Source of the DNA: Schmidtea polychroa
Lineage: Eukaryota
Reading direction: 5' to 3'
Assembly: GCA_044892525.1 (NCBI GenBank)
Contig: CM097887.1
Coordinates: 80,764,397-80,828,396 of the forward strand
Length of the DNA: 64,000 nucleotides
Of this stretch, positions 12,059 to 43,227 are shown piece after piece. The notes beneath the pieces are model-generated. The model saw nothing but the letters and a program-made list of their open reading frames with translations. It made no database searches and had not been told where the DNA came from. The first letter of the stretch is position 1. Every line of letters begins with the position of its first letter. Position numbers and translations under genes: made by a program.

Positions 12059-12444
12059 TCAAAGATCTTTCATTGACTTCAACCACGCTAAACAATGTTG
12101 CCCACATGTTTTTGTCAATGGACTTTGATAGCGAATTTTATTATATTCAATTGGCATTAACAATGATTGAAGTTTTGATATTAATAGAGGAGGATAATAA
12201 AACCCCATGGGATCAAATGCATATATTTTTTCCGGTTTCACATAAACTGCGAGCCAATGCTCTCCCTTGAGATTACAAGATTGAGTATTTACAATTAAAG
12301 CCTTGTTTACATCAATATATGGTATTTTATCTAATGGAAAAACTCCAAGAAATTCAGCTCCGAACAATCTTCGACCTATGTATTCAATCTGAATAGAACT
12401 ATTATCAATAAATTAAAGTAATAAAAATGAAATTCTTACTTCAT
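12059..12444 (-). CDS. Adenain-like cysteine protease, spliced (exons 12444-12440 and 12398-12059, 114 aa)
   Basis: GVFPLD, GEHWLA, FDPMG, Q....TCGQHC catalytic motifs; a 41-nt GTAAG...ATAG intron supplies the start MNSIQIEYIG. Confidence 0.9.
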
Positions 12445-12506
12445 TTTTAATAATTATTGTTTCCTAATTTGGTTTATAGTTCAAGCCAATCATTTTCAAA
12501 CTTTAT

Positions 12507-13733: not shown

Positions 13734-14131
13734 TTTTCGAATATAGTTCCAAAGCCTTTCATTCTTTTGTTTATATGCTTCTTTAATGTTTTTCTGCGTT
13801 TAATCATTCCACCTTTTTGTTCATTCTCTTGTTTATTAAAAACATCAGATACTTTATTAATTACAGTAGGCAAATGTTGAATTACATCAGGTAGTGAATG
13901 TTTAATTTCAGATAAAACATTTGATTTTAAAGCAGGTAGAATTTTTGAATTGTTATTTATTACATCATGTGCAGTTTTCATACCAAAATTACCTATGCGT
14001 CTAAGAATTGGTAAAGCAAATCGACCTATTGTTTTTAACCAACCTGTTCCATATTGTTTACCAACAAAATATGGTAAATCTCCACCAGATTGACTATTAC
14101 TATAAAAGTTTACAATATCAGGATTATTCAT
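13730..14131 (-). CDS. Small basic Maverick virion/core-like protein with QxGxG motifs
   Basis: FY..SQSGG.LPYFVGKQYGTGW..IGRFALPILR; basic C-terminus; overlaps the penton stop and the MCP start. Confidence 0.7.
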   Translation of the reverse strand: MNNPDIVNFYSNSQSGGDLPYFVGKQYGTGWLKTIGRFALPILRRIGNFGMKTAHDVINNNSKILPALKSNVLSEIKHSLPDVIQHLPTVINKVSDVFNKQENEQKGGMIKRRKTLKKHINKRMKGFGTIFEK

Positions 14132-15155
14132 TTATTTTACGAAAATGTAGTGTTAAATGTGTTTTGGTGTCTTTTGAAAATTTAACTAAATTTCCACTAT
14201 CGTTGCGAATATTAATTTCAATGTTGCTTATAGATGAAGATGAAATTGGAAGGTACATTGGGTTCTTTATTTCTAACTGTACAACCTCTCCCTGTTCATA
14301 TCTTTTAATCCATATCGATTTTAATAGAGAAACTCTTACATCACCAACATTTATTGGTTCAATGATATTAGAATAAATAAACATTTGTTGATGAATTTTA
14401 AATATTTTTGGAATTTTCACACCAACAAAGTCTTTTTCATTATAAGTTTGATTCTTTAATCCTAAAGCTTTTGTTAATTTTTGATCAAAGGTAATATTTG
14501 AAATATCATCTACAAGTGTTATTTTTACCAATTCTTGATTTTGAAGATGTATTTCTTTAAATGGAGATGGATTAATTGTCATTAAATACCCTCGCAACTC
14601 TGATAAAGTAGTTAAGAATAATTCATCTTCAAAATAATGTTCGAATTTTGTCTTGATATCATAATTTATAGTTATCCCAATTTGTTCAATGATATTATTT
14701 TCAGTAAATTTAGGTAGTTTAATTCGACAATGGTCAGTTTTGCTAATGATTGATATGGTTTTTAATTCAAACTTAGATGCATGTTTGGTGTCAAGAAATG
14801 ATATTTTAAATGGAACATGTGGACAAACTATCACTAAGTTTTCATATCTTTCCAAGAACACATCAACATCTGGATTATATGTAGAATTTAAAATTTTTAA
14901 GATTTTGTTTTGATTATCAATTTTCAAGTATTTAGTTTCTTCGCATGATTTTTTAAATTCGTATTGTACCCATGAATTACTGTAATACGGAAAATGATTA
15001 TACACAAATGTAAAATCAATCAAAGCTACTTCCCACTTCCCATTCAAATAAATTGGGTTTTGAAATTCAACTTTAAAATTACTAGCATTATTATCAGGAT
15101 AAATAAGAGGACAACTATTACTAGATAAAATCATATAAAACTGGTTTTCCTTCAT
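14124..15155 (-). CDS. Maverick minor capsid (penton/PX-like) protein
   Basis: FYMILSSNS...YPDN.ASNF, LNGKWEVAL, MFIYSNIIEP..VGD, YLPI....ISNIEINIR, LHFR. Confidence 0.88.
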   Translation of the reverse strand: MKENQFYMILSSNSCPLIYPDNNASNFKVEFQNPIYLNGKWEVALIDFTFVYNHFPYYSNSWVQYEFKKSCEETKYLKIDNQNKILKILNSTYNPDVDVFLERYENLVIVCPHVPFKISFLDTKHASKFELKTISIISKTDHCRIKLPKFTENNIIEQIGITINYDIKTKFEHYFEDELFLTTLSELRGYLMTINPSPFKEIHLQNQELVKITLVDDISNITFDQKLTKALGLKNQTYNEKDFVGVKIPKIFKIHQQMFIYSNIIEPINVGDVRVSLLKSIWIKRYEQGEVVQLEIKNPMYLPISSSSISNIEINIRNDSGNLVKFSKDTKTHLTLHFRKINE

Positions 15156-15160
15156 AATAT

Positions 15161-15902
15161 TTATTTAATCAATTGGTTTTCAGATATCCAGCTAGGATGT
15201 TTATAACCATGCCATTTCACATAGTATTGTTTATATTTCCCGTCTGATTTAGTTTTTAAAATCTCTTGAATTCTGAAGATTGTGGGTGATGGAATGACTT
15301 GTAGTTCTGGTTCGTAGAATTTGCCACTGACTTGATCGTTTTCATTATCTGTAATAAAGTACATGACCGGATTTTGATTAGTATCTATTTTCGATATTTT
15401 AAAAACTTCATCACTCCAATTGTTATCAAAATTCTTGATGAATGGAGAAGCACTGATTTTACTTATTCTAACATGGTCTCCTACTTTATATTTCGGCTTT
15501 TTTGTTTTTGATTTATCTTGTTGTGATATCCAAGTATCAATATTATTTGTTGAATAAATATCGATTGGTCTCATTCCATTTATTCCTCTATGAGGTGAAA
15601 AATTGTAACTATAAATTATTTTCGACAATACATTTATCCACGTTTTATTGCCTTGATATACAAAATATTTTTTCAAACGATCTCTTAAAGTACGATTGAA
15701 TCTTTCCACGTGCGCTGCTTTATATTGTGAAAATACTGAGTAATGATTTATTCCTTTGATAATTTCTTTAACTTTGCTATTATAAAATTCTTTACCTAAA
15801 TTTAAAATTAATTAAAATTATTTAATTTATAATTTTACCCAAATCTGTTTGTAAATTACGAGGCTGTCCGTCAGCAAATAATGTTTTTAATGCATCAGCC
15901 AT
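15161..15902 (-). CDS. int: Maverick retroviral-type integrase with C-terminal chromodomain, spliced (exons 15902-15839 and 15795-15161); N-terminal catalytic Asp region missing
   Basis: P..LQTDLG|KEFYN restored across a 43-nt intron; VERFNRTL; KYKVGDHVRISK; NWSDEVF; FYEPELQ; YYVKWHGY. Confidence 0.9.
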
Positions 15903-15918
15903 TTAGTAGTTAGAAAAA

Positions 15919-16305
15919 ATGTCAAAAGGTAAAGAATATATTTTTATTTATAATTAATAATCTTTATATCTAGTTTACTTATTTGAAGTAATTTTAAAGA
16001 AGTTTCAAGAATTATACCCAGGAATAAGAAATACCATAGATTATTGTGCACCAGAGTTACTTATAAATAAAATATTTCGTTTAACAGGTATTAATATAGA
16101 ACAACTTTTAGAGTTGCACTACGATATGGTTCTAAGGTCTGACACTAGATGCATTGAAAATTGCATTGTTTGCAAAGATTCTATGAGATTGTCATGCCCC
16201 AATGGGTGTCCATGCTGTCACGACTTTAAAAGGGATCAATCAGTCCATATCTTATTAGCTGAAATGCGTAAAGCATACCACACAGATGTATTTAACTTGA
16301 AATAA
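15919..16305 (+). CDS. Cys-rich small Maverick protein, spliced (exons 15919-15928 and 15974-16305, 113 aa)
   Basis: 45-nt GTAAAG...TCTAG intron containing in-frame stops; C..C..C....C...C.CCH cluster. Confidence 0.65.
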
Positions 16306-16414
16306 AATGTTTTATATAATTTTTAAAATTTTTATCAATATCATTTGCCTTTTACATTGTTATTGTGAAATAGTCAAAGTTTTTATTGTTGTGAACAATT
16401 TAGTTATTAAAAGG

Positions 16415-16417
<3 letters not shown>

Positions 16418-16507
<90 letters not shown>
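16418..16507. repeat. (TAT)n microsatellite, about 30 units
   Basis: Direct reading; flanked by sequence inversely similar to 6421-6570. Confidence 0.98.
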
Positions 16508-21838: not shown

Positions 21839-22654
21839 TTATTTTTGAGTGTTGAGAAAATATGCTTTTAAGAAGCATAAATGATCCAACAAGTCATTAT
21901 TCTGACGGTTACGCAGCTTATTATAGAAATTTGCTGTTGAAGAGAATGCTCTTTCTGATTCAAAGCTTGTTGGTCTTATTGTCAACAAATGTTCATAAAC
22001 AAGAGTTAACAAAGAACCTCGGTAACCGGTATCAATAAACATTGTAAGTTCTCTTTTTAATGATTTCATTCTATTTAAATCATGAATATGCATGCCTAAT
22101 TTTTCCTTAGTTAGATGCTGTGTAATATTCTGGTGCAAATTTTCCGAATCAGAATCATTTTCGGATAATTCATGTTCATCATCAAGAGATTGATTTGACA
22201 AACGTTCCAAGAGACGATATTTAATATCGTTTGTTGAGAAGCTTTAGGAAAAATAGCATTGTTTGAGATTTTCCTTCCAAAATGTAAATAATCCAAGACA
22301 TTAGATAAAACTGCTCAACGTTCCGAAAAATGACGTGTGAGACTTTCTTTTAGAGCCATGAATAACACATTATCATTATGCAAGTTATTGATAGTAAATG
22401 ACAATGTTGCATCTGCAGTTAAAAGATTTGCTTCACTTTTGCATAAAGCATTCATTGCGGAATTAACGGGTGATAGAGCTGTTATTGCAGTTGATATTAT
22501 TTCTATATATAATTCACTTAACTCTATGTCGCTATGAAGGTCAGTCAACAATTTCTTAATGTAATTTTTTAGCAAATAAAATCGTTCAAGCATTAAAATA
22601 ATCAAGTTTCAGCGAGTCTTAAAATCCAGAAGAAGCTGCAACTCTTTACCATGT
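21839..22654 (-). pseudogene. hobo-like hAT transposase fragment, split by the Gypsy insertion (continues at about 35585-35680)
   Basis: PTSFESERAFS...DHLCFLKAYF dimerisation domain; LDFKTR*N; removing the element and one ATGT restores ...CVKKHGKELQLLLDFKTR. Confidence 0.8.
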
Positions 22655-23384
22655 TGTTGGATGACAGAGGAAGAAGAATTGAAGAGTTTGAACTAACACA
22701 CTACTATAGAACGGGCAGCAACAAGTTCAGAGTCAATATCTATGTGGAACCCAGGCAACCAAAGCCGGACAATTCAAAATATTGACGATTATGTGTTTAC
22801 TTTATTCATGCTGTGTCATTTGGACTATCCTTTATTTTACTTATTTTATTTCTTTATGATATTATTGGTGTATATATTAATTCTATAGAAGTTTGTACAT
22901 ATTTTTGAGTAGCTGTTAATTTTTATTTAATATATCTTTCCGTATACATTTAATATTTTTATAAAAGGGTAAATTAAATCATTAATAATTAGTTTTATAA
23001 GTAGAGATAAATAATATAATGAAATAATAATAATACTATAAAATAATTAGAAATCTAAATTTTGTTAAAATAATGCACGCAAGTTGTAAGGAAAAATAAT
23101 TGTAATTATTAAATAATAGAGTAAGAAAAACATCTGGTTAAATAATATCTGTTAGAGTATTAAGGAAAAACAGAACAAACACATAACATTCACACAGTAC
23201 ATACAAGCATATTCGGTTGGATATTTAAAGGATTTTTTTGGATTTTTGTAATCTAGCAAACAAATTCATATTTGGTAAATTTTTCATTATAATAAAAGTT
23301 ATATAAATTACTTCGTCTTTTGATATAATTGTACGTATATAAGAACCAGTAAGTTGAGTGTTCCCGAATATCGAGACCTCAACA
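22655..23384 (+). repeat. Gypsy 5' LTR (730 bp; lacks about 233 bp present in the 3' LTR)
   Basis: Near-identical to 34618-35580 apart from the internal deletion and a few substitutions. Confidence 0.95.
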
Positions 23385-23386
23385 TT

Positions 23387-23404
23387 TGGTGCCGCGAACC
23401 GGGA
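23387..23404 (+). promoter_or_regulatory. Primer-binding site (tRNA-Phe- or tRNA-His-like)
   Basis: tggtgccgcgaaccggga 2 nt after the LTR; TGG start complementary to tRNA CCA. Confidence 0.85.
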
Positions 23405-23625: not shown

Positions 23626-25272
23626 ATGAATAATAATAATAATAATTACATAAAAATTTTACCAGTAGAACCATATAGAGGAGAGCCTGAAAAGTTCGAC
23701 GATTTTTTCACTGAGATCGCTCAGTATGCAGAAGCTTGTGGTTGGACACCTGATGAATTAAAAATGAGAATCCCATTATACTTAAAAGGCTATGCGTTAC
23801 AGGCATACAATAACTTAGAATGTAAAGGGAATAATTTTGATCAACTCGTAAGATATCTGAGAGCAGAAATAGTAATCGATAGCGATTTACAAAAGATAAA
23901 TGTTCAAAAATTTAGAAACAGATATCAAGGTACTAGAGAATCAGTTGGTGAATATGTATATACGATTACGGAGTTAGCGAAAAAGGCATTTGGTGCGGGC
24001 GAGCACACAGCAAAGTTAATTGAGGATCAGTTTTGGAATGGTATACAAAAATATTTATATAAAGCATTAATTATGGTAGAATATGGTAATTTAAATGAAT
24101 TAGTTCATAAAGCTAAACGTATAGAAGCAATACAACGAGATAGATTTAGCTCACATGTAGATGCAATGGAAATTCAAAAACCCATCGAGGTAAAATCTGA
24201 GTTGGGTAAGTCAGATGACAACATTCCCTGGGAGGAGATGAAGCAACTATATTTAAACTTTGTAAAAAATAGACGAAGGGTAAGCCCGAGTCCGGATAGA
24301 AGTCAATCGCCTGAAAACAGGAGGAGGTTTGATAATGTGAGAAACAGAAACTTTGAGAATAGAAACAATAGAAACACTTTTGATAGAGATAATCGATATG
24401 AATACAATAGAACTAATTATACGAGAGATAATCGAGTCGATTTTAGTAGAAATAATTTGAGAAATAATAAATATGATAGAAGTAATAGATATGATAATAG
24501 AGATAATACAAATGATTTGAGACGTAGACAGACAAGTCCATATAGACAGAATTCATATAGAGAAAGGCGAGCAAGCCCTTATAATAATGATGGTAGAGAT
24601 AAAGTAAATTTTAATGGACAGATCAAATGTTATAATTGCCAAAAATATGGTCACTTAGCTAAAGTATGTAACAATGCGCGAAGCGAATCGCCTAATAGAG
24701 TGAGATTTAAAAATGAGCCTGAGATAAAACAAATTAATAGTGCTGAGTTGATATCAGCTAATGAGGAAATAAACAGTTTGAGAGAGGAATTAAAAGAATT
24801 TAAAACTCAATATGGGAGACTTATTGAGAGAAAGTTAGAAATGTCATTAAATGAGTTTCAGTGTTTTACTAATGATGTAGATATAGATAATGATGAGTTT
24901 CGCGAAGCAAGAGAAGCGGATGAGAAATTTCTTGCAGAAGCAAATAGATGTAAAGAATTAAAAGAGGAATTGAAAGAGACATTAGAGAAATGGCCTTATG
25001 ATGACAATGAGACATTGCGTATAATAAATAGAGTTCAAGTCGAAGGAATTGACTTAGAATATTTGAGAAATTTGATACCACTAATGGTAAAGAGGCAAAA
25101 TATGACAAGAGTATTTGAACTAGAAATAGAATTGAAAGAAATGATAAAGTGTTATGGTGAATTTGTGAGAAAAATTCAGAAATTACATGAGTCATTGAAT
25201 ATAACTATTGAGGCAAAGGACCTTTCGAGAATACTTATGGTAGTACAGGGGTACATGTTTGCACAAAAGTGA
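23626..25272 (+). CDS. gag: Gypsy Gag with RS/RD-rich region, zinc knuckle and coiled-coil C-terminal extension
   Basis: EPYRGEPEKFDDF...ACGW, Q..RESVGEY, CYNCQKYGHLAKVC. Confidence 0.92.
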   Translation: MNNNNNNYIKILPVEPYRGEPEKFDDFFTEIAQYAEACGWTPDELKMRIPLYLKGYALQAYNNLECKGNNFDQLVRYLRAEIVIDSDLQKINVQKFRNRYQGTRESVGEYVYTITELAKKAFGAGEHTAKLIEDQFWNGIQKYLYKALIMVEYGNLNELVHKAKRIEAIQRDRFSSHVDAMEIQKPIEVKSELGKSDDNIPWEEMKQLYLNFVKNRRRVSPSPDRSQSPENRRRFDNVRNRNFENRNNRNTFDRDNRYEYNRTNYTRDNRVDFSRNNLRNNKYDRSNRYDNRDNTNDLRRRQTSPYRQNSYRERRASPYNNDGRDKVNFNGQIKCYNCQKYGHLAKVCNNARSESPNRVRFKNEPEIKQINSAELISANEEINSLREELKEFKTQYGRLIERKLEMSLNEFQCFTNDVDIDNDEFREAREADEKFLAEANRCKELKEELKETLEKWPYDDNETLRIINRVQVEGIDLEYLRNLIPLMVKRQNMTRVFELEIELKEMIKCYGEFVRKIQKLHESLNITIEAKDLSRILMVVQGYMFAQK

Positions 25273-28200
25273 ATAAAGTGAAACAGATGGCCAGAGCAAA
25301 TTGGCCCGAGAAATTGGGAGATAATGATAAAGTGAAACTGTATTTTAACGGCGTAGAAATGATGAATAATGAATATATAATTGACTATGGAGTAAACGTC
25401 ATTGATAACAATATTATTTCTGCAGTAATAGAAAGGCAAGAAAGTAAAGAAATTGATACACCAACTCCATCAGTAGAATTGAGTATAAATGACGAAAATG
25501 ACTATGATAAATTATTTAGATTGTGGGATGCTTCTTCAGGAGGAGCAATGAGGTCACCAACAGTTAGCGATGAAATCTTTAAACCTATTGATACTAAATA
25601 TGATAATTTACATGAGACAATAGAAAAAATTGCGAAACAAGCAAATATGCAGGACGCAGAGACGATGAGACGAGGTAGAGGAAGGCCTCGAAAATCTGAA
25701 ATAGCCGAAAAGTCAGATGACAGAAAGGCAGCAGAGCGTTTAAGAGATATTGCAAATAATATGAGACAGGAAGTCCCAAAAAATCAGGATAATGACAAAG
25801 ATATAAAGATGATAACTGAGTTAGTTAAAGCAATGAATATGAGACGATTTCCGGAAGCAAAACCATCAGCGTTAATAGAAAATATAGTTAAAAAGATTAA
25901 ATTAATGGAAAAAGAGATTAGAGAATTGAGTGCAGAGGAAGCAAATGAAGAGACAGTGTTAAAGATATTATTTACAACAGGAGTTAATCGAGATAAAGTG
26001 ATTACGGCAATGGCATATTTAATAGCAAGATACAAGAAACTTTTGCGATTGAATCCAAAGAATCAAATAGAAAATATCGCTAAAATGATATATAATAAAT
26101 TAAAGATAGATGCTATGCCATGGATAAAATTAAAGGGAGGATGGAAAATACTGTATGATGAGAGTCTAATCGAAAGTGCTCAGGAAAGCGTAGAAGATAA
26201 TATTAATGTAGAAATAGATGATACGGAGGAAACAGTAAAAAATCTAGTAAATAAAACAACTATGAAACCAAGTCAAAAAGAAAGAAAGTCGACAATGTCA
26301 ATAGTAATTATAGTAATAACATTGTTATTAGATCTGATAAAAGGGAATAATGCGATCATAGCGTATGACTGTCAGAATCCCAAGTGGGGACAAAAATATT
26401 CATTGCTGGATGTAGAAAATTGCCCAGAGGCTAATCCAACAAAATTAATTGTAGCAGACCCCAAGATTTTCCATATATATCAGGAATCTGATTTCATTCA
26501 CACTGAGGCAGGAGAATGTATCGTTAAATATTCAGAGGAAAGTTTTGTATGTAATAAAATAGCGAGAACAATATTAACTCCAACATGGGCACCAGAAGCA
26601 ATAATAATAACGCCAGTTGAATGCGAAAATGCATTTAAAACAAAAAAGATAAAAACGCCGGATGGATTTGAGTTAGATGCTCAGGTAGGAGCACGAGTTA
26701 GACAATTAGTAAATGTCGTGGGATGGTCATCAACAGGAGGATATTGTGAAGGAGGAAGGTATAAAATATGGGGGCATGTGGCAGACAATATTGTAGTGAG
26801 ACGGCAGTATTATATTGAATTAAGGAAATTCAAAGCGTCATTTGATAGTTCATCAAAGAAAATGATGACACATAAGTTCTGCACATTAGAGGAGACAAGC
26901 TGTGATACAGGCGAGTCAATGATCATATACAGAGTGAATAAATACGAATGCCATCTAACTAAATTAAAGACACTGAAATTCAGAACGATACGAGGTAAAC
27001 AGTTTACGGATGTAGAATCCAAGAGCATCAAAGACCAAAAACGACGAGCAACGATAATTCAAGAGAGAGATACCCCAACAATATACATATCAGATTCTGA
27101 AACAGAGGCGATGAGATTTGTAGGAAAAGGTGAAAGCATAAAATGTGGCAAGGCAGTCGTACAAACAAATTATTATATCAGCGGAAGTGAAATTAAAGAG
27201 GCAAAATCGAGAATAGATAAATTCGACGTCAAGCTAGCATCATATTTTAATAATAAAATTGACTATTTCTATCATCATCAGTTAGTACAATTGGACAAGG
27301 TGTACCAAGCAACTATCGCAAACGATTGTAAACTTAATAGAGAAATATTAAGGACAAAGATGGCGGTTGCAGTCACAAACCCAGATTTAATGGCACCAAT
27401 TTTATTTGCAGAAAAAGGGACATTTGCAAGAGTTGTCGGTGAAGTGATACAAACATTTCAGTGTAAACCGGTTAGCGTATCGTTAGCAACGAATAATAAG
27501 TGCACAAACGAATTGCCAGTAGTGTATAAAGGAGAAACTGTATACCTCCAACCAATAACAAGGATATTAACAGATAAAGACTATGTTCCGAGAAAAATTG
27601 ATAAATGTACTAATCTATTAGATCCATTATACAAAATAAATGATGATATGTGGATTACAATGTCAGATAGAAAAGAAGCGACTAAACCACAAAAACTAGA
27701 ACTAACTGAACTTGAGAAAAAGTTAGAATTTCAGGAAGTCAACGAAATGGATAACAATGGGATGTATACGAGAGAGGCGATAGAGAGCGCCAGAAAACAT
27801 ATGTTATTTCCTCATGAAAAAGAAAAAGTTCTTTCTATCATGGTAAACAAAATCATCGAAAATGGTTATGGAGGAAATTACAACTTTGATGTATTATTAT
27901 CAAAAGAGCACTTCGAGAAAGTTGTGTATAGAGTATTATACAGCATATGGGGATATTTTGCGATTCTCGGAAATACGTTTTCCACTATATTGGGTATATA
28001 TTATACAGTAGCACTATTGAAAATGATTTGCTCATCATTAGTTTCGTTAAGACAACTGAGACAAGTTTTTGGTAATTCATATAAAATGATAGCATGTTTA
28101 TGTCCATTCATAGCCAAATATTTGATCACTGCGAGGTACGATAAGGAAATCAAACGGATGAAAAGTCGAAGGGAAGAGGGTGAAATAATGATCACCAATG

Positions 28201-30008
28201 AGAAAGAGGACGATACAAACAGATCAGAAAATATTGAGCAACCACATATTGGGTTATATGATAATCAAAGAGAACAATTGACAGAATTGAGAAATAATAT
28301 TGAAATTAGAATCCCAGGTGAAAATGGTAATTGTCATTGTGTTCCAAGGAAAACTTATGGATGTTACGGGTTAGAACTTGACGATATATTAGAAGGGTTA
28401 AATGAAGCAAGGCCTAAATTACAAATAGTGATAAATGATACGATAATAAAGACATTATGTGACACAGGAGCAGCAGCTTCTATGATTCGTGAAGATCAGT
28501 TAACCAGAAACCAAAAGAAAAATATCGTGAGCACACGAGATAGATTAATTTCATTATCATCACATTACATACCATTAAAAGGCGATATCGAATTAACAGT
28601 CCACTTTTCAGATCAAGTGGTAGAACATGTCTTCAAGGTAGTAGCAGAGTGTAAATGCGTATGTGTCCTTGGGATGGATATACTCAAAAAGTTAAAAAAC
28701 TGTGTAATCGATTTAACGGATAGCACAGTCAAACGCAAGGCAATATATCAAGACGCAAGATTTACTGAAGTAATTGCATTAGAGACATTTGAACTAGAGT
28801 ATCAAAGTGATCATATAATTCCAGTAAAAGTTAATGTTAAAAGTGAGGACACTTTCATTTTCGAGCCTGAAACGGCAATATCACGAAATCATAACGTAAT
28901 GTTAACAGACGAGTGTGTAATTCCAAATAATGGGATAATTCCAATAAGAATCGCGAATTACGAAAGAAATAAAGTAAAAATTCATAAAGGTACAAAATTG
29001 GGAAAGTTGTTCAAAGGTGAATTAGAGCAAACATTTGAAGTATGTGAGATGTCGATGACGAAGGATGTCAGTGAAAGAATGGTCGAACAGAGTAGAGCGA
29101 ATAATATCAAATTTTATGATAAAATTAAAATAAATAATAATTATCTAAATGAAACACAACAACTACAACTACAAATATTACTTGACGAATACAGTGATGT
29201 TTTTGCAAAACACGAATTTGATTTAGGAGATACTGACATTATCAAACATGTAATCGATACAGGGAATGCTAGACCAATAAAACAGAGACCCTATAGTGTA
29301 CCATATAAACTGAGGGAGGAAATAAAACGACAAATTAAAGAATTAAAAGAGGCAGGCGTAATAAAACAAAGTTTTTCACAATGGGCATCACCTATCGTAC
29401 CAGTTAGAAAGAAAGACGGGGAAATTCGAATGTGCATTGATTATCGTAAATTAAATGATGTAACAGTAAAAGACTCATACCCATTCCCAAAAGCACAAGA
29501 ACAATATGATAAACTTAGAGATACTAAATATTTCACAGTAATAGATGCAAATAAAGGCTACATGCAAATTCAAATGGAAGAGGGGGATGCGGAAAAGACA
29601 GCTTTTGTGATAGAAGATGGTTTATATGAATATACAAGATTACCTTTTGGGTTAACTAATGCGCCAGCAACATTTCAACGTTTAATGAATACAGTATTAG
29701 TAGACGTACAACATTGCGCAGTATATATGGATGATATATTAATTTCATCAAAAACATTTGAGGAACATCTAAAAGATATAGCTAACGTACTAGAAAGATT
29801 AAAAAAAGCAAAAATCAAAATAAAACCCACTAAGTGTAAATGGGCAGAACCTTCAGCATTATTCTTAGGACATATAGTTACAGTAGATGGTATAATACCT
29901 AATCCCGATAAAATTGAAGTAGTTAAAAAATTCCCAGTTCCAAAAACATTACAACAAGTACAGGGATTTTTAGGTCTCACAGGATATTATCGCAAATTCA
30001 TACAATAA
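25269..30008 (+). CDS. env-pol: Polyprotein part 1: AT-hook region, signal-like segment, chuvirus-like class III glycoprotein, TM, protease, RT
   Basis: RRGRGRPRK; MSIVIIVITLLL...AYDC...YSLLDVENC; GEV..FQCKPV.V, LPV, GMYT...MLFP; CDTGAAAS; YMDD. Confidence 0.88.
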   Translation: MNKVKQMARANWPEKLGDNDKVKLYFNGVEMMNNEYIIDYGVNVIDNNIISAVIERQESKEIDTPTPSVELSINDENDYDKLFRLWDASSGGAMRSPTVSDEIFKPIDTKYDNLHETIEKIAKQANMQDAETMRRGRGRPRKSEIAEKSDDRKAAERLRDIANNMRQEVPKNQDNDKDIKMITELVKAMNMRRFPEAKPSALIENIVKKIKLMEKEIRELSAEEANEETVLKILFTTGVNRDKVITAMAYLIARYKKLLRLNPKNQIENIAKMIYNKLKIDAMPWIKLKGGWKILYDESLIESAQESVEDNINVEIDDTEETVKNLVNKTTMKPSQKERKSTMSIVIIVITLLLDLIKGNNAIIAYDCQNPKWGQKYSLLDVENCPEANPTKLIVADPKIFHIYQESDFIHTEAGECIVKYSEESFVCNKIARTILTPTWAPEAIIITPVECENAFKTKKIKTPDGFELDAQVGARVRQLVNVVGWSSTGGYCEGGRYKIWGHVADNIVVRRQYYIELRKFKASFDSSSKKMMTHKFCTLEETSCDTGESMIIYRVNKYECHLTKLKTLKFRTIRGKQFTDVESKSIKDQKRRATIIQERDTPTIYISDSETEAMRFVGKGESIKCGKAVVQTNYYISGSEIKEAKSRIDKFDVKLASYFNNKIDYFYHHQLVQLDKVYQATIANDCKLNREILRTKMAVAVTNPDLMAPILFAEKGTFARVVGEVIQTFQCKPVSVSLATNNKCTNELPVVYKGETVYLQPITRILTDKDYVPRKIDKCTNLLDPLYKINDDMWITMSDRKEATKPQKLELTELEKKLEFQEVNEMDNNGMYTREAIESARKHMLFPHEKEKVLSIMVNKIIENGYGGNYNFDVLLSKEHFEKVVYRVLYSIWGYFAILGNTFSTILGIYYTVALLKMICSSLVSLRQLRQVFGNSYKMIACLCPFIAKYLITARYDKEIKRMKSRREEGEIMITNEKEDDTNRSENIEQPHIGLYDNQREQLTELRNNIEIRIPGENGNCHCVPRKTYGCYGLELDDILEGLNEARPKLQIVINDTIIKTLCDTGAAASMIREDQLTRNQKKNIVSTRDRLISLSSHYIPLKGDIELTVHFSDQVVEHVFKVVAECKCVCVLGMDILKKLKNCVIDLTDSTVKRKAIYQDARFTEVIALETFELEYQSDHIIPVKVNVKSEDTFIFEPETAISRNHNVMLTDECVIPNNGIIPIRIANYERNKVKIHKGTKLGKLFKGELEQTFEVCEMSMTKDVSERMVEQSRANNIKFYDKIKINNNYLNETQQLQLQILLDEYSDVFAKHEFDLGDTDIIKHVIDTGNARPIKQRPYSVPYKLREEIKRQIKELKEAGVIKQSFSQWASPIVPVRKKDGEIRMCIDYRKLNDVTVKDSYPFPKAQEQYDKLRDTKYFTVIDANKGYMQIQMEEGDAEKTAFVIEDGLYEYTRLPFGLTNAPATFQRLMNTVLVDVQHCAVYMDDILISSKTFEEHLKDIANVLERLKKAKIKIKPTKCKWAEPSALFLGHIVTVDGIIPNPDKIEVVKKFPVPKTLQQVQGFLGLTGYYRKFIQ

Positions 30009-32696
30009 AATTCAAAAATAGCAGCACCACTAATTGAGTTAACAAAAGCAGTCAAAACAAAGGGAGAGAGTAAAGGAGTGTTAATAGTACAAGAGATTAA
30101 CGATAAAATTAACAAGCCACAAAAGAAATGGAAAGATGAACACCAAAAAGCTTTTGATCAACTAAAAGAAAAATTAATAACAGCACCGATACTAAGATAC
30201 CCAGACTTTAAAAAACAGTTCATTGTCATGACAGACGCCAGCGGGAAGGCCGTAGGGGCAGTCTTAGGACAAGAAGAGGAAAAGGGTAAAGATTATGTAA
30301 TAGCTTATGCAAGCAAAACATTAAAAGGAGCACAGATTAGGTACTCAACAATTGAAAAAGAATGTTATGCTATAGTTTTTGCATTAAAACAATTTAAACC
30401 ATACATATATGGAACTGAAGTAGTAATTAGAACAGACCATAAGCCATTAGAAGGGTTATGGAAACATAAAGATACATCCAGTAGACTGTTAAAATGGGCA
30501 ATGAAAATACAAGACATGCACATAAAGATTGCATACAAACCAGGTAGAATAAACAGGAATGCAGATGCATTATCACGAATTCCAGAGTTAGGAGCACTAG
30601 AAGTTTTTGCATTAGTAACTGAAAAACCAATAGAAATATATGAGGAACAAATGAAAGATCCAGAACTCTTCAAGATAAGAGAAGAAATAAAAAAGGGAAC
30701 TAACCAAAAGTATAAAATCTGTAAGAAGTTAATTGTTATTGAGGATTTTAGTGGTAAACAATTAATAGTAGTACCACAAAGATTAAGACAAATTCTTCTG
30801 TTACAATATCACGATGGTGCTCTAGGAGGTCATTTATCAAGTAGGAAAACAGCAAGCAGATTGATGCAAAAATATTATTGGGACGATTTGAAAAAGGATG
30901 TCAAGAGATGGTGTAATGCATGCACAATATGCGCAACTAGAAAAAACACAAAAACAAAAACTAAAGCACCTTTACATCCAATCCCAGCTACAACATCACC
31001 AATGGAACTGTGCGCAATGGATTTTTTGTGTAAACTACCCACAACAATTAATGGGAATAAACACATATTAGTTTTTAGCGATTATTTTACAAAATGGGCA
31101 GAGGCATTTCCTACAAAAGATGAAACAGCAGAAACAGTAGCTAAATTACTTGTGGAAAAAATAATCTTTAAAATCGGTACACCGAGAAAATTATTAACAG
31201 ATAAAGGGAAAAATTTCATGAGTGAAACTATAAAAAGAGTAGCTAACATATTTAACATGCATAAAATCAACACAACAGCATACCACCCTCAGACCGATGG
31301 TTTAGTAGAGAGATTCAATGGGACATTGCTAAGTAGATTAGCTGTGTTTGTGGGAAAAAACCAAAATGATTGGGATGAATACGTTAATCAATGCACATAC
31401 ATCCATAATATCACACCAAATGAGACAACGGGATATTCACCATATTTTCTAATGTTCTTAAGAGAGCCTGCGACACCGATTGATACAATTTTTGAGCCTC
31501 GAGTATCACAATATTTAGATGCGCCAGATTATGTAACATTAATGCAAGAGAGATTACAAGAGGTATATAAGGTTGCAAATTTAAAAGTTAAATTCAGACA
31601 AGAACAATATAAAGCAGATTACGATAAAAATAGCAAACCTCATAATTTTAAAGTGGGAGATAAGGTTAGACTTATGTCTCCACAAGTAGGAAAAGGCAAA
31701 ACAACTAAATTAGCAAGACCATTTAAAGGACCATATGAAGTAGTAAAAGTAGTACATGAAAACCTGCATTTACAAAAACATAAAAATGAGGATCCGATAA
31801 TAGTACATGTTAATAGATGCAAACTAGCAGAAACAGAGTTAATAGAAAAACCACCTCACAAATATGGATTACGATCACAAAAAGCACTGATGATGGCAAT
31901 GATCTTTTTAACAATTATAGGGCTATGTAAATCAACTGAAGTAGAAAATGAGAGCATACACTCAGTAAAATACATGGAGGAAGATATTTTAATCAACATT
32001 TCACCGTATAAAATTAAAGTATATAACTTGAATAAATCACCCATAAGAGACTTATATCTAGAAACTGGGGACGATATACCCAAGCTTATGAAAAAAATTG
32101 AGAATAGATCAACTAATGAATTTGAAAGAGGAGATCTACAGCCTAACACAAATTACACACTTTGTGCACAATGGAATACCTTAGTTGACACATCACAAGT
32201 AAGGTGCAAAAGAATAAGAACCACTATCACAAACATATATAAGCCCATAGATAATAGCATGCCAACAACCACCATAACAATAACTACCACAAATTCGGCA
32301 TCCACCCAACAGTCATCACAAATGATAACAAACACAGACAGAGAAACGACATTTAAAGTAACTAGACAAGTATATAAAAAATTAATAATAAAAAATCTAA
32401 GACAGTTCGATAGGAAACTGATAAAATTACCTACGGGAAAACCCATAATCATAAATAACTGGGATGAACTAAGAGCATTTCAAGTAAAACCTGCTAAACC
32501 ACGATGGCCTTTCTATGTAATCTCATCAAGCATTTTAGCATTGAGTATTTTAGCTATTATCACCAGTGTTCAAGTGTATAAAAAATACAAATGGAAAAGG
32601 CAGCGGTATCGGCACCGACTGGTCAAAAATGTACCAGGGCATTTTCATTTGGATAAGTATAGGCCAGGACAATACACAATGTCCTCATTGGTTTAA
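30009..32696 (+). CDS. pol: Polyprotein part 2 (same frame, after a single TAA): RNase H, integrase, then signal-like segment, FN3-like domain, Thr-rich stalk, TM, basic tail
   Basis: MTDASG, YASKTL, TDHKPL, ADALSR; HDG...GH..C..C; MDF, TDKGKNF, DGLVER; GPYEV; LQPNTNYTLCAQW; FYVISSSILALSILAII. Confidence 0.9.
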   Translation, partial: NSKIAAPLIELTKAVKTKGESKGVLIVQEINDKINKPQKKWKDEHQKAFDQLKEKLITAPILRYPDFKKQFIVMTDASGKAVGAVLGQEEEKGKDYVIAYASKTLKGAQIRYSTIEKECYAIVFALKQFKPYIYGTEVVIRTDHKPLEGLWKHKDTSSRLLKWAMKIQDMHIKIAYKPGRINRNADALSRIPELGALEVFALVTEKPIEIYEEQMKDPELFKIREEIKKGTNQKYKICKKLIVIEDFSGKQLIVVPQRLRQILLLQYHDGALGGHLSSRKTASRLMQKYYWDDLKKDVKRWCNACTICATRKNTKTKTKAPLHPIPATTSPMELCAMDFLCKLPTTINGNKHILVFSDYFTKWAEAFPTKDETAETVAKLLVEKIIFKIGTPRKLLTDKGKNFMSETIKRVANIFNMHKINTTAYHPQTDGLVERFNGTLLSRLAVFVGKNQNDWDEYVNQCTYIHNITPNETTGYSPYFLMFLREPATPIDTIFEPRVSQYLDAPDYVTLMQERLQEVYKVANLKVKFRQEQYKADYDKNSKPHNFKVGDKVRLMSPQVGKGKTTKLARPFKGPYEVVKVVHENLHLQKHKNEDPIIVHVNRCKLAETELIEKPPHKYGLRSQKALMMAMIFLTIIGLCKSTEVENESIHSVKYMEEDILINISPYKIKVYNLNKSPIRDLYLETGDDIPKLMKKIENRSTNEFERGDLQPNTNYTLCAQWNTLVDTSQVRCKRIRTTITNIYKPIDNSMPTTTITITTTNSASTQQSSQMITNTDRETTFKVTRQVYKKLIIKNLRQFDRKLIKLPTGKPIIINNWDELRAFQVKPAKPRWPFYVISSSILALSILAIITSVQVYKKYKWKRQRYRHRLVKNVPGHFHLDKYRPGQYTMSSLV

Positions 32697-32841
32697 AAAT
32701 AATATAGATAATTTCAATTCCTATTGGTCAATGATAATATTTAAACTCACATATATTTATATTTTTATTTATATTGAAGCGTATAAGGTAAAGCCTCAAA
32801 TGCGCTGTAAATATGTATGTTTATATTGTTTTTTTAGAAAA

Positions 32842-34404
32842 ATGCAATCCAACAATACCAGAGTCAATCCCAAACCATTCAATCCCATACAACGTCCAGT
32901 CCAACAATACAGCTGCTCCATTCAAAAACTATACCACAGTTTCTACAAAAATTTGCAAAATAAAATCACCTCAGACGGCTCACCAATCACCATCAGAAGT
33001 TTCCCTAACCAGGTCTGCATACCCAATGAAATGAAGTGCGAAATCGAAGAAAGAGAAATGCACTTAGTTAAATTTAATGAAGACCGAAGGATAAAGCTGA
33101 GAGATATAATAGGCACCTATGATATGTTCGAAAATGCAGATATCGCAGCAAATGAAGGAAGAAAAGTCCCACATAGAATACTATTCCATATGACCAGAAC
33201 GGAGGTCTCAATTTGCCAACAACGAATCCCAATTATAACAACAAGCAACTGCACGGTGGTGATCAAAACGATGAAGACAAATCGAAGCGTGCCAAACGAT
33301 TTCAACAATTTGGTCATCCAAATGAACAATTTACCCTGTGTGATGGCTATCGAAATTCTATATGTCCCAACCATACCCAATCCTTTCAGAGAATTAGAGA
33401 TGATACAGTCGGAAATCGTGATACATCAGGATTTCATCTCGAAACGGATGTCATTCACACATCAACAGTTGTCAATCCCCGAACGACAAAGGGCAATTAT
33501 GTTCGTCGATGTCAAAGAAGTATGCGACATCAATAACAATCTCAGACCAGTAGAGATATGCATCAGAAATTTTAGAGGAGAAATCGTATACAATAAAAAG
33601 GTGACTCCACGCACCAAAATCCAACATTATTACCCGGAAAAGACAAGAGCAGACAGGGATTCAATAAGAGAAAATGAAGACGAATACCAAGCGCTGATCG
33701 ACATACAGAAGCTGCTACTCGGAAAAATCATTGTGGGATACGAAATAATAAAGAAACTCAAGACGCTGACATTAGATCTGTACAATGTCATGGGAGTCAG
33801 AGAGTTAGCTGAAGATGTGTTCATGTGTTCATTCGTCAAAAATGTAGCACCACACAGAATCAAACTATCGAATCTCGCATACAAGGTAATCGCAACACAC
33901 CCAAAATGGAAGAAAGACAAAGCAATCAACAACATCCTCAGAAAACCCGAACCGTTCTCAGCAGAAGATACAACACTAATCGCAAAAGTCATTTACCTCT
34001 TGGTCGAAAAGCAATGGGAAGAAGTCATAAGGTGGGATATGACAGCATTCCAAAAGGAAAATAATGGCCATCAACTCAGTCCAATAGAAGAAAACAGCGA
34101 TGAGCCAGAAGAATTTGAGGGAGATATATATATCGAACCCTCACAAAGAGAATTGAAATTCAATAAAGATGGGAGCAGACGTACCTTTGAAGATGAACTA
34201 ATAGACAGCGATGATGACATCATATTCGTCAAAGAGGACAAAAAACCACAAGCAATCACAATAAAGGAAGAACCTCAGACATCAAGTAGTTACAACTATG
34301 CTGACCCACAATGTGATTTAGACTCGGATGAAGAATATTTCTCACCGAGCGAAGCAATGCAGATAGATGACGAACTAGGACCAGAGCCAAATGTCGAGTT
34401 GTAG
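32842..34404 (+). CDS. Gypsy accessory ORF3 (520 aa) with degenerate DEDDh (REX4/ISG20-like) exonuclease domain and acidic tail
   Basis: MFVDVKE...VEICIRNFRGEIVYNKKV.P...LLLGKIIVGYEI...LTLDL; long intact ORF inside the LTRs. Confidence 0.65.
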   Translation: MQSNNTRVNPKPFNPIQRPVQQYSCSIQKLYHSFYKNLQNKITSDGSPITIRSFPNQVCIPNEMKCEIEEREMHLVKFNEDRRIKLRDIIGTYDMFENADIAANEGRKVPHRILFHMTRTEVSICQQRIPIITTSNCTVVIKTMKTNRSVPNDFNNLVIQMNNLPCVMAIEILYVPTIPNPFRELEMIQSEIVIHQDFISKRMSFTHQQLSIPERQRAIMFVDVKEVCDINNNLRPVEICIRNFRGEIVYNKKVTPRTKIQHYYPEKTRADRDSIRENEDEYQALIDIQKLLLGKIIVGYEIIKKLKTLTLDLYNVMGVRELAEDVFMCSFVKNVAPHRIKLSNLAYKVIATHPKWKKDKAINNILRKPEPFSAEDTTLIAKVIYLLVEKQWEEVIRWDMTAFQKENNGHQLSPIEENSDEPEEFEGDIYIEPSQRELKFNKDGSRRTFEDELIDSDDDIIFVKEDKKPQAITIKEEPQTSSSYNYADPQCDLDSDEEYFSPSEAMQIDDELGPEPNVEL

Positions 34405-34410
34405 GAGCCA

Positions 34411-34545
34411 ATGTTCATCATCAAAGAGGGAAGATCCACTATCTCGGAAAAAGAAATACATCAACACTTCGGTAGACGAATTATTGATGGTGATGTGTTA
34501 AAATTGGCATTGAAGAAAGATTCCAAAGAGCAACAATGTATATAA
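34411..34545 (+). CDS. Small ORF (44 aa) between ORF3 and the PPT
   Basis: ATG 7 nt after the ORF3 stop; overlaps the next ATG. Confidence 0.3.
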   Translation: MFIIKEGRSTISEKEIHQHFGRRIIDGDVLKLALKKDSKEQQCI

Positions 34546-34748
34546 ACGGTTGCGAAATCGAATTGGTCCTTAGCGATAAAGGTAATGAGGACATTACTTT
34601 ATCGGCCCTAGGAGGAGTGTTGGATGACAGAGGAAGAAGAATTGAAGAGTTTGAACTAACACACTACTATAGAACGGGCAGCAACAAGTTCAGAGTCAAT
34701 ATCTATGTGGAACCCAGACAACCAAAGCCGGACAATTCAAAATATTGA
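34536..34748 (+). CDS. Small ORF (70 aa) spanning the PPT and running into the 3' LTR
   Basis: Open frame with GC-richer, coding-like composition extending about 130 bp into U3. Confidence 0.4.
   Translation: MYINGCEIELVLSDKGNEDITLSALGGVLDDRGRRIEEFELTHYYRTGSNKFRVNIYVEPRQPKPDNSKY
34610..34617 (+). promoter_or_regulatory. Gypsy polypurine tract
   Basis: aggaggag directly before TGTTGG. Confidence 0.7.
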
Positions 34749-35580
34749 CGATTATGTGTTTACTTTATTCATGCTGTGTCATTTGGACTATCCTTTATTT
34801 TACTTATTTTATTTCTTTATGATATTATTGGTGTATATATTAATTCTATAGAAGTTTGTACATATTTTTGAGTAGCTGTTAATTTTTATTTAATATATCT
34901 TTCCGTATACATTTAATATTTTTATAAAAGGGTAAATTAAATCATTAATAATTAGTTTTATAAGTAGAGATAAATAATATAATGAAATAATAATAATACT
35001 ATAAAATAATTAGAAATCTAAATTTTGTTAAAATAATGCACGCAAGTTGTAAGGAAAAATAATTGTAATTATTAAATAATAGAGTAAGAAAAACATCTGG
35101 TTAAATAATATCTGTTAGAGTATTAAGGAAAAACATCTGCTAAAATATATTAAATTCATTTTTTAAGCATACTTAAGAATACTTAAAATATATTAATTAA
35201 ATTCTTAATCATTTTCTCTTAAAAGAAAAAGTATAAATAGCGAGTCAAAATTCATTTTTTTCGCCCCAAAATTTTAACCGCGTTAACATACTAAAAAGGT
35301 TAATCCTTATTAGTGCTAAAACTCGAACAGACAAACAGAAACGTTCAAAAGCCTACACGCAACACAGCAAGAGAACACATAACATTCACACAGTACATAC
35401 AAGCATATTCGGTTGGATATTTAAAGGATTTTTTTGGATTTTTGTAATCTAGCAAACAAATTCATATTTGGTAAATTTTTCATTATAATAAAAGTTTTAT
35501 AAATTACTTCGTCTTTTGATATAATTGTACGTATATAAGAACCAGTAAGTTGAGTGTTCCCGAATATCGAGACCTCAACA
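34618..35580 (+). repeat. Gypsy 3' LTR (963 bp)
   Basis: TGTTG...CAACA followed by TSD ATGT. Confidence 0.95.
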
Positions 35581-36234
35581 ATGTTTTTTGACGCAAAGTT
35601 CGATAAAGTTCCGGACAAATTTATAAAAAAATGAATCATGATAAAGTTTCGAACACATAGTTATTTACACAAAGATAAGAATATTGATCAAAGTTGTTTT
35701 TCAATCATTAGCTCTTGTTTGGGGAATTGGATTGTTGAGTTGTCGATCCGGATTGCAGAGATGGAGGTCTACGAGAAGATTTTATTTATTGACGTTCTTC
35801 GGCGTACACGTTAACTCTGTACTTGTCTGGCCCTCCTCTATAATATTTGTCTAAAGTGAATGCAGTGATGGGTCTACCCTCATCATCTAACACTGGCATG
35901 TTATCAATTAATTTTTAAAAATTACTAAATGATCTCAAATATTTTGCATCATCGAAATTTTGCCCAGTTTCATAATTTTATAACATCACTGATTTCCTGT
36001 TCGACACTTTAATTTTTAACTATTTGCTTAAAATTAAAATTAAAAATTTTTACAATAAAATTATTTTGTGTCAAATTAAGTAAATTGTTTAAATTTCCCA
36101 AAATGTAAAATTTCATTTTAAAATTTATGATTTAATCTCTCATCTTTACAAATATTATGTTGGTGCCAGAATGAAATTTGTGGATTGATAATTGTTTGGT
36201 AAGGCAAATTTTTCTGGTAACATTTCCTTTAAAG

Positions 36235-39200
36235 ATGTGTTGTAATTGCTGTTCAAAACTGTCGAAATGTATTTTATTGTTACTAAATTTAACTTTTACA
36301 GTACGATTTTTCATTCGGTTTACGTTTGAATGAGAATTAGTTATCAGGATTTGTCTTGATTATTTTGTCGTCTATTTACATGGCCAACGGTCAGATGGAG
36401 TATGGAATTGACCTAGTTGACGGTTTCAGCAATAAGGCCACTCTGATTACGGTTTTTGTATTTGGAATCATAATTTCCTCCATATCAATTCTTGGATATT
36501 ATGGTACTGTGAAAAATAGCAGATATTGGTTACGAATTGTAAGATTAATTGACTTGGCATAAGAATATAATTTGTCTATTCAAATTAAGTATCTTTTGCT
36601 TATTTTATTCATGATGTTCATCGAACTCGGAGGAACTATATTTATTGTCACTAATCGAAAGTCGGTGAGTTGATTTTTTGATGAAAACTGATATTTATAC
36701 TTGTTGGGTTAAGAATGAGAGATGTTTAATGAGAAAATAAGGCAAACAAGTTGACTGGAAATGACGTACACAATTTTATACGTTTCATTTCACTCATTAA
36801 AAAATCACAAACTTTATGTTATAGCAAACACAGACTTTATTTTAATTCACTAAGATTTTTATTATTTGGCAGAAAATATATGAAACTTCATGATTACAGT
36901 GCATAGTTAGTTTCCTAATGAAAAGCGGATCAGGGTAGGTAACAAGAGTGAAGTGTAGGTGTCCATTCAGCGTCTATTGATCCAATGTCATTAAAAATTC
37001 AACATTTAAAATTATCTAATTCATGCCACAACAATGAGACTGCTTTCTAAATGATTTTTGGTAAGTTAATTTTAATTTTTAATAAATCAAATTCAACTAA
37101 AAAAACTTTATTTTTAAACACATCAAATCATCACATTGAAAGCGCACAAAACTAAACCACACAATCAAAATCCAATTACACCTATTTCCAATGAATAAAA
37201 GTTTATCAACTAATTCCATAATATTGAAGTTTCTATAATTTAACGAAAAATCGATTAACTTTAGAATAGGAACACACAAACTTACCCGTCTCATTTACAT
37301 TGACAATTTTGGTTTCAATACATGGTCCACTCAAACCTTCGTAAGAAAAAAAGAAATTACATTCCGCAGTAATATAAAGTAACTGAAGACAAAACATGTC
37401 TTTTATATTAGAGATTAGCCACAAATTAATTGTAGGATCCTACAAAATGAATACATAAGAGTTTTATTAATGAATTTACTACAAAATTGAATGGGCCGGG
37501 ATACCATGTCATTCAAGACAATGTTTCATAACTCCAAATAATTACATTGAAGACCTGACACTGTATTGCTCATTCCTCAATCCAATAGAAAGTGTATTCA
37601 GCAAAATCAGGCAGCATCAATAAAGCAATATCTAGAGCAAATGGATTCAGTTCCATGTTCTTTTCAATCAGATTCGACATTATCAAAGAGGCTATAGAAA
37701 ATGAGCTCGATATAATAGATAATAATAAAATCACACTATCAATATGGTGAGAACTTCAGAGATCCTAATAAGATAAACCTAAGTACACAATCGGAAAGCT
37801 TTAAGAACCTTTTAAAATGTCCGAGACATAACTACTCTAATAACATCATTTTGATTATCCTAAGTATTATTAGAACCCTCGAAAGTTTTAAAGTATCATT
37901 ATCCGTACTATGATTAAGATGATTATTGTTGTTATTTTCATTTCTATCACAAATATGATTATTACTTCATATTGTTATTATTAACATTAATATTATTATT
38001 AAGGAAATTCTTGTTATTATTACCTTCATTCTAATGACCATTAGTGTTACCGTTATTATGAGCATTTGTATCATACGATACATATGGTTAGTATGATTAC
38101 CCTAAATTTTGCGACTATTATAATTTTTTATCTAAGAATCACCATCACTTTGAACACAACCATGTCATGTCAACCTTATATAAGACAATAGTTCGATTTA
38201 CTTCCTATTAGTGGGTGGGAAGCCCTAAATAATCGATACAATAAATCAGCAGAGAATCTTTGGTCATCATACTATTCGCATCTAGCGACCCATCAGAAAT
38301 GCGCAGTGGATGTTCGATCAGCCATAATCATGCCTTTAAGTTTTGTTTGACTTTTCTATCGTTCACACCGTTACTAGTTTTATAATTATCATTATTGTTA
38401 ATAACGCTATTCTCGACCTCATGATTATTATTAATTACTAATAATCTCATTAGTAATATAACTATACTTATCATTAATACTAGTACTAACATTAGTGTTA
38501 GAATATTTTTTCTCTATGGGTGGTGTAACTAAGGGATAATTTCGATTATAATATGGTTCATCGTCTGGGAAATTAATAAATGAAAGCATATTCTGGTTTA
38601 GTTTAAGCCTCAGTAACAGTTTAATAAACGTCGTAGTTGATTGTCTATTTCCCTCGCAGCTCCTCTTACTTACTTATTAGAACTCGGGTTCATCATCCTT
38701 TAGAATTGGCAAGTCTGAGTAAGAAATTTCTTACGCCAAATTCAATAATAGCTATCATTACAATCATTGTTACTGCTAGTATTAGGTGACCAGACGTCTC
38801 GCTTTTGGCAGGACAGTCCCGATTTTTCACGATTTATCCCGCGTCCCGAACGTTTTTCAAAAGTCCCGACTTTTAGAATTAAGTTAAATTTTATATTTAT
38901 GAAAATCATTGTTTTTCATTCTAAGAATCCTATAGACCAGTGCTTCTCAAACTTTCTGATGTGGCGTACCGGCAGATGTTTTTGGGAATGTGACTGTTTC
39001 ACTTCTTGCTGATGACTTACATTCCATGTTACATCTTGCTGCTCCACACGTGTGGATCAGGTTGTCAGATGTGTGACATAGAGTAAAATATCAGTCAAAT
39101 CTTTTAATAAAGTGCATACAATAACTGTTTCCAATTAAATTACTACCATGCTGTATTCTTATTAGATAAATAAACAAAAAATATCAGTCACATGACCCAC

Positions 39201-43167: not shown

Positions 43168-43227
43168 TAAAATTTTATTTTCTCTTTGTTTATTGTTTGG
43201 CTTTTCATTAACTATTATTATTTATTA

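Follow-up and report, generated by a model that had tools for sequence, protein, structure and literature searches.

Giant gypsy-like LTR retrotransposons known as Burro, or GYPSM1, have been described in Schmidtea mediterranea (Arkhipova and Yushenova 2019, PMC6431247, section 7, citing Grohme 2018 and Jurka 2007). The Burro polyprotein runs from an N-terminal Gag through SUMO-like and BCL2-like domains and an in-frame env with matches to mononegavirus glycoproteins to protease, reverse transcriptase, RNase H, and integrase (PR-RT-RH-IN) (PMC6431247), and Burro expression is under PIWI control, being de-repressed by RNAi of smedwi-2 (PMC8532177). Errantiviruses of GAG-ENV-POL order with an envelope of the herpesvirus gB type have been reported from Platyhelminthes, Nematoda, and Bryozoa, six of them from S. 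mediterranea (Chary and Hayashi, eLife 2026, PMC13524379). Section 11 of that paper names as open how gB-type errantiviruses enter cells without the herpes proteins gD, gH, and gL.

Here, we analyzed 64,000 nucleotides of Schmidtea polychroa DNA (the window), in which an earlier note had recognized a chuvirus-like fusion glycoprotein embedded in a Gypsy element. We conclude that the segment probably encodes an envelope, class III by predicted fold, that belongs to a GAG-ENV-POL Gypsy errantivirus resembling Burro. The envelope is part of a polyprotein about 3,050 residues long, which is likely cleaved at the endoplasmic reticulum (ER) membrane. By the note's own criterion, its reading would fail if this architecture were already catalogued. 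The arrangement is in fact not new: an in-frame env between gag and pol is published for Burro (PMC6431247), and gB-type elements of gag-env-pol order are catalogued, Smed_errantivirus_3 among them (PMC13524379).

The element and its surroundings

The envelope is surrounded by a 12.9-kb Gypsy LTR element, all features of which are given on the forward strand. It is bounded by a 4-bp target site duplication (TSD), ATGT (left copy at 22651-22654, right copy at 35581-35584). Comparison of the LTRs delimits a 5′ LTR of 730 bp with TG...CA ends (22655-23384) and a 3′ LTR of 963 bp (34618-35580); the 5′ LTR is internally deleted and lacks about 230 bp of the 3′ LTR. Two mismatches among the 730 bases that align between them mark the insertion as young. 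The primer-binding site (23387-23404) pairs with the 3′ end of the host tRNA-Phe(GAA) over 15 nucleotides plus CCA, and a polypurine tract (34610-34617) adjoins the 3′ LTR. The Pol domains follow the order PR-RT-RH-IN (Pfam RVP, RVT_1, RT_RNaseH, Integrase_H2C2, and rve); the profiles of RNase H and integrase are of the gypsy type, and Pfam found no Pao peptidase in the envelope-bearing element. The assignment to Ty3/Gypsy (Metaviridae) follows from these structural features (TG...CA LTRs, short TSD, tRNA primer site, and polypurine tract) together with domain order and profiles, the RT tree having held only nine relatives.

Genes for tRNA-Phe(GAA) occur in genome G000 as a tandem array with a period of 255 bp (G000:C1:34234126-34257090, locus L051), and the 3′ end of the array tRNA matches the element's primer site. 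The 15-nucleotide primer-site word itself occurs 2,078 times in G000.

Further repeats share the window with the element. Positions 30309-44981 and 44977-59649 form a tandem duplication of 14,673 bp with 100% identity, which takes in the element's 3′ half, its 3′ LTR, and 9.4 kb of host flank; it is either an assembly artifact or the product of a segmental duplication in the very recent past. We rejected 44977-50248 as a second insertion, as this stretch belongs to the identical duplication together with host flank. A Bel/Pao retroelement lies at 1462-5396 (Pfam peptidase A17, RT, and DUF5641; open frame of 1,155 amino acids [aa]). Positions 6327-16507 hold an element of 10 kb whose ends are repetitive and inverted and whose open reading frames (ORFs) lie on the minus strand. 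It is possibly a Polinton-like DNA element, with weak matches to a double-jelly-roll capsid (12510-13799), an integrase plus chromodomain (15164-15811), and an endonuclease VII (6584-8902).

The envelope and its predicted fold

An open frame at 25212-30008 holds the envelope and then protease and reverse transcriptase. All motifs that had been quoted for the envelope are found in this frame, namely, the hydrophobic segment at Met 26295, AYDC at 26361, GEV..FQCKPV, and GMYT...MLFP. The envelope is preceded by an internal signal sequence (26277-26354) with a basic n-region and a hydrophobic core from Met 26295; such a pattern precedes AYDC in all 17 listed homologues, and a signal-peptidase site is predicted just before the IxAYDC start. 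The ectodomain (26355-27950) is of the chuvirus G/herpes gB type by Pfam, predicted fold, and homologues, and its 532 aa and 14 cysteines agree with the Cys-rich ectodomain of about 530 aa proposed earlier. Pfam family PF24664 (Monjiviricetes_fusion) matches it at E = 3e-86 (290 bits; cut-off, 27), and a weak Borna G match falls on the same ectodomain. None of 14 control genomes had a PF24664 match.

Behind the ectodomain come a membrane-proximal region, a transmembrane (TM) helix, and a short hydrophobic Cys-Pro segment (27951-28136), the last of which would lie on the cytosolic face. The topology of both signal and anchor was read from hydropathy and from patterns in the homologues. The anchor, where hydrophobic TM segments had been suggested, is only moderately hydrophobic, with a single 19-residue window above 1.6 (1.79 at 27987). 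We did not find a canonical furin site in the window envelope. The ectodomain has no N-glycosylation sequon at 17 of the 18 loci examined, including that of the window (0 observed versus 3.1 expected). A non-luminal topology, considered as a cause of this depletion, was set aside: fused envelopes average 2.1 sequons versus 3.0 expected (n = 19) and stand-alone envelopes 3.1 versus 3.6 (n = 75), with the cysteines kept.

AlphaFold2 modeled the envelope as a monomer with a mean pLDDT of 89.8 and a pTM of 0.72 from a 114-sequence alignment. The model has long beta hairpins and a long central helix of 48 residues. A Foldseek search against viral models placed chu-like virus glycoproteins on top (E = 3e-37; TM score up to 0.75; 17 to 20% identity); lower ranks went to rhabdo-like G proteins and herpes gB. 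Against the PDB, all matches shown were herpes gB, the best being a postfusion structure (E = 1e-13; TM score of ∼0.45). A PDB profile search with the envelope likewise returned gB in 33 of 33 matches, all of them weak (E of 0.013 or higher), and a single-sequence PDB search gave one chance match. The elongated fold, long central helix, signal sequence, Cys-rich ectodomain, and C-terminal membrane anchor are those of a class III fusogen. The class III fold, which the earlier note had asked structure prediction to confirm, is secure at the level of prediction.

One frame from Gag to the membrane protein behind integrase

In the window copy, Gag (23626-25272) comprises a capsid-like region, an R/N/D-rich region, a CCHC knuckle (24622-24669), and the start of a linker, and it stops at 25272 solely through a frame change near 25240. 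Two domains in positions reported for Burro precede the envelope: a weak SUMO/ubiquitin-like match (25317-25427; PF11976; E = 0.098, below the cut-off) and, adjoining the envelope, a Bcl-2-like domain (25881-26144; PF00452; E = 5e-6, with 27.5 bits below the cut-off of 31.4). The envelope is followed by an aspartic protease with LCDTGA (28404-28697), a reverse transcriptase with YMDD (29241-30005), and RNase H (30129-30515), all three by Pfam, and by an integrase with an HHCC zinc finger, a core, and a GPY-type C-terminal part (30771-31830). A stop at 30006-30008 divides Pol directly behind the reverse transcriptase. The claim that the envelope shares its frame with PR, RT, RNase H, and IN therefore holds for the frame, which is the same through IN, and for PR and RT within the ORF, but not for an ORF open to the end; the window copy cannot produce the whole polyprotein.

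Sister copies were sought by an envelope DNA search (281 candidates, 40 scored) and by a protein search with the C-terminal module (145 genomic places listed). All 40 scored DNA matches are 95 to 100% identical to the window envelope, and in 38 the match spans nearly the full query. The family has many young copies and has multiplied recently. Frames of at least 3,050 aa are present at 11 of the 145 listed places. We retrieved eight of these 11 copies, which were picked for their long frame, and in all eight Gag, envelope, Pol, and the C-terminal module form one ORF of 3,051 to 3,090 aa, and the envelope's frame also takes in the CCHC knuckle ahead of the envelope and the protease behind it. 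The intact order is Gag, Bcl-2-like domain, signal, envelope, anchor, PR, RT, RH, IN, second signal, FN3-like domain, and TM helix. These copies bear out both the gag-env-pol order and the in-frame fusion to Pol. The placement of the envelope between gag and protease had been recognized correctly, but the earlier note had missed that the polyprotein also includes Gag and that integrase is followed by a second membrane protein. Among the 10 copies nearest the window envelope, none is fully open; the Gag knuckle and the envelope start share an uninterrupted ORF in three, and in two more they share a frame interrupted by a stop. Most sister copies have an envelope three codons longer than the window's.

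Because the sister copies have one open frame, we regard the frame change near 25240 and the stop at 30006 as damage and not recoding. A programmed frameshift between gag and env-pol was ruled out, as Gag and envelope share one frame in the sister copies, and so was readthrough of the 30006 stop, as the sister copies have one frame and other copies have their stops elsewhere.

The envelope is under purifying selection. Compared with 10 copies, the ectodomain has a dN/dS of 0.05 to 0.08 in eight close copies and 0.03 in one distant copy, and the tenth is saturated. Synonymous distances between the window and sister copies (23662-34401) form a mosaic, with 0.16 to 0.26 in the envelope and 0.01 to 0.05 in RT, and in one subfamily whose RT is near-identical, the second membrane protein is ∼77% and the 3′ ORF ∼65% identical. 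Together, the mosaic divergence and this subfamily point to module exchange by recombination. Another envelope-bearing family, with open frames of up to ∼3,334 to 3,361 aa, is present at many places in G000, where a first look for PF24664 gave 2,580 candidates, 68 of which were scored.

Could the envelope be translated from a message that is spliced or initiated internally, or act in cell-to-cell or intracellular membrane fusion and not in free infectious particles, the single frame being a trace of gene history more than of one translation product? Met 26295 opens the hydrophobic segment and could serve as an ordinary N-terminal signal, and making Gag and Pol in equimolar amounts would be wasteful. 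The entry mechanism of gB-type errantiviruses is, moreover, given as unknown in section 11 of PMC13524379. Against a separate message, the frame is open across both envelope junctions in all eight long-frame copies and in distant relatives, and the linkers flanking the envelope have a dN/dS of 0.07 to 0.47 where computable, well under 1. Moreover, most listed homologues lack a Met immediately ahead of the hydrophobic core. We consider a separate message, or a role in cell-to-cell or intracellular fusion instead of free particles, unlikely and retain the single polyprotein as the preferred reading. Contigs from four public sequencing runs, which may stem from RNA or DNA, cover either two of 30 bins of the element or all 30, and no splice joint appeared in the three runs guessed to be RNA.

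The descent of the envelope was examined through its relatives. A full library scan gave 976 relatives, 150 of which were listed. All 10 long homologues have both PF24664 and an aspartic protease, and five of these have detectable Gag similarity upstream. Full-length fused envelopes keep the 14 cysteines, and signal pattern and cysteines are kept at 27 to 40% identity. In three relatives (P0001, P0004, and P0007), three aspartic-protease-like stretches each were observed, with C2H2 zinc fingers near them in P0001 and P0007. We built a midpoint-rooted FastTree tree of 58 ectodomains, consisting of 18 polyprotein-embedded envelopes (the window's included) and 40 of 65 others. All 18 embedded envelopes fall, together with one fragment, into a single clade (support of 0.997), apart from 39 of the 40 other proteins. 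The window envelope thus groups with other polyprotein-embedded envelopes and not with stand-alone viral G proteins. The set was chosen by similarity to the window, so the tree shows shared descent with those elements and names no donor.

This result bears on the proposal, made in the earlier note, that a chuvirus glycoprotein was captured independently, in an event not known before, and gave rise to a new Gypsy lineage. Chu-like glycoproteins do have the nearest viral folds, and GAG-ENV-POL elements are not monophyletic by Pol (PMC13524379), so that animals may have acquired this order repeatedly. However, the embedded envelopes form the single clade described above, the best chu-like virus matches are just 17 to 20% identical, and the order of SUMO-like domain, Bcl-2-like domain, env, and PR is the same as in Burro. 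Furthermore, the published 246-aa envelope segment of Smed_errantivirus_3 (PMC13524379) is ∼83% identical to window positions 26445-27190 (201 of 243 positions, counted by eye). An independent capture is thus highly improbable and is abandoned here in favor of shared descent.

A further alternative is that the envelope entered an ordinary gag-pol element by secondary insertion or was joined to it in the assembly, a local assembly error being possible given the perfect 14,673-bp duplication. The sister copies refute this. Further points against it are the continuous frame at both junctions, the purifying selection on the domain, the start of the duplication at 30309, downstream of the envelope, and public-run contigs that span all 30 element bins in two of four runs.

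Proposed processing and comparison with known systems

We suggest a mechanism by analogy to the polyproteins of flaviviruses and alphaviruses, which are processed by host signal peptidase. Gag would be synthesized in the cytosol, and the internal signal would then thread the envelope into the ER lumen. Signal peptidase would release the envelope N terminus, the Gag precursor would stay attached to the membrane, and the anchor would act as a stop-transfer sequence, such that PR-RT-RH-IN reach the cytosol as the tail of the envelope. The element's protease would release Gag and Pol, and the second signal would direct the FN3-like protein into the lumen. Budding particles would carry the fusogen and could enter neighboring cells or stem or germ cells.

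Two difficulties accompany this scheme. Transposition of the family calls for Pol in the cytosol, and hence for a chain that crosses the membrane just once behind the envelope; for this reason, we place the Cys-Pro segment that follows the anchor at the membrane surface, since Pol would be luminal if the segment crossed the membrane. In addition, a single polyprotein would yield Gag, Env, and Pol at 1:1:1, unlike in retroviruses, so a further control step would be needed, and none was found. The single-polyprotein design predicts signal-peptidase cuts and an unusual tethering of Gag and Pol to the budding membrane.

The second membrane protein (31887-32696), which is likely exposed at the surface, follows integrase in frame. 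It has a signal-like segment (31887-31943), an FN3-like beta-sandwich of ∼95 aa with five sequons (about 31938-32222), an S/T-rich stalk, a TM helix (32505-32579), and a basic cytosolic tail. Compared with sister copies, dN/dS is 0.00 to 0.17 in the beta domain and 0.28 to 0.58 in the stalk. A model of the ectodomain, made from one sister-copy sequence without an alignment, is a seven-strand sandwich with a pLDDT of 63. A fold search of the PDB placed FN3 domains on top (best E = 0.032, none at or below 0.001), the Atlas lists FN3 proteins at 0.84 to 0.89, and Pfam fn3 matched one sister-copy piece (E = 0.048) and none of six long homologues. The evidence for FN3 is weak but consistent, making this assignment likely, not proven. 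No sequence homologue of the protein was found outside this genome among 1,069 candidates, and further searches gave nothing significant. A later pair of signal-like and TM segments occurs after integrase in five of the six relatives that reach that far (it is absent in P0007), and these modules do not align with the window's.

A separate 3′ ORF (32554-34404; 616 aa from stop to stop) contains a predicted exonuclease-like domain (∼33481-34059) that may resemble the DEDDh-type exonucleases ISG20/RNase T. The evidence for this is weak: the best match is ISG20L2 (E = 0.058), there is one unannotated homologue, and Pfam gave no match on the ORF. The domain has a dN/dS of 0.05 to 0.08 among close copies and is under purifying selection.

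In herpesviruses, gD and gH-gL are the partners of gB, and the FN3-stalk-TM protein may play a comparable role. We tentatively raise the possibility, which we judge doubtful at present, that these elements are two-glycoprotein retroviruses made from one polyprotein. Pol would then lie between a gB-type fusogen and a fast-evolving FN3-stalk-TM attachment or trigger partner, host signal peptidase would be the main processor, and the 3′ module (second protein and exonuclease-like ORF) would be swapped among subfamilies of near-identical RT as a host-facing specificity cassette. The post-integrase protein is a concrete candidate for the missing gD/gH/gL-like partner, and the family, at ∼13 kb and with dozens of young copies, offers a compact example in which to address gB-type retroelement entry.

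The second membrane protein is the sole part that we did not find in the literature searched: it appears neither in the main text of PMC13524379, from which the word "fibronectin" is absent, nor in section 7 of PMC6431247. Figures, Repbase, the eLife supplements, or other papers may describe it.

Among described systems, Anakin of mosquitoes likewise joins a chuvirus-like glycoprotein to an LTR retroelement (Dezordi et al. 2020, PMC7642597). Anakin has a Bel/Pao backbone and an insect host, whereas the window element is Gypsy, without a Pao-type RT or peptidase A17. The noncanonical nematode endogenous retroviruses (Sacco et al. 2022, PMID 35550022, as cited in PMC13524379) are metaviruses with env before pol in another host phylum. 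Burro and the window element share a single polyprotein with Gag, SUMO-like domain, BCL2-like domain, in-frame env, and Pol, although our SUMO-like and Bcl-2-like matches are below Pfam cut-offs. Burro exceeds 30 kb and encodes 4,873 aa (PMC6431247), compared with 12.9 kb and ∼3,050 aa in the window family, and in the window element, one CCHC knuckle was found and Pfam gave no MATH, BIR, or ankyrin match, unlike the Burro cargo. With this size and without these domains, the element is Burro-like and not Burro proper. Section 7 of PMC6431247 does not term the Burro env class III and mentions no membrane protein after integrase.

With its Gypsy Pol, gB-type env between gag and pol, multiple copies, and flanking LTRs, the element belongs with the GAG-ENV-POL errantiviruses of the HSV/gB type. 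A close described relative is Platyhelminthes_Rhabditophora_Smed_errantivirus_3, which shares the gag-env-pol order, Ty3/gypsy Pol, and gB-type class III envelope (PMC13524379) and for which the supplement of that paper lists an AlphaFold structure. The main text of that paper does not use the words "fused" or "in-frame." Smed_errantivirus_3 is listed there with no primer tRNA and three copies; the window family has a tRNA-Phe primer site and no fewer than 40 copies that are 95% or more identical. At ∼17% divergence, the window family is a sister family of Smed_errantivirus_3 or the same family in another host.
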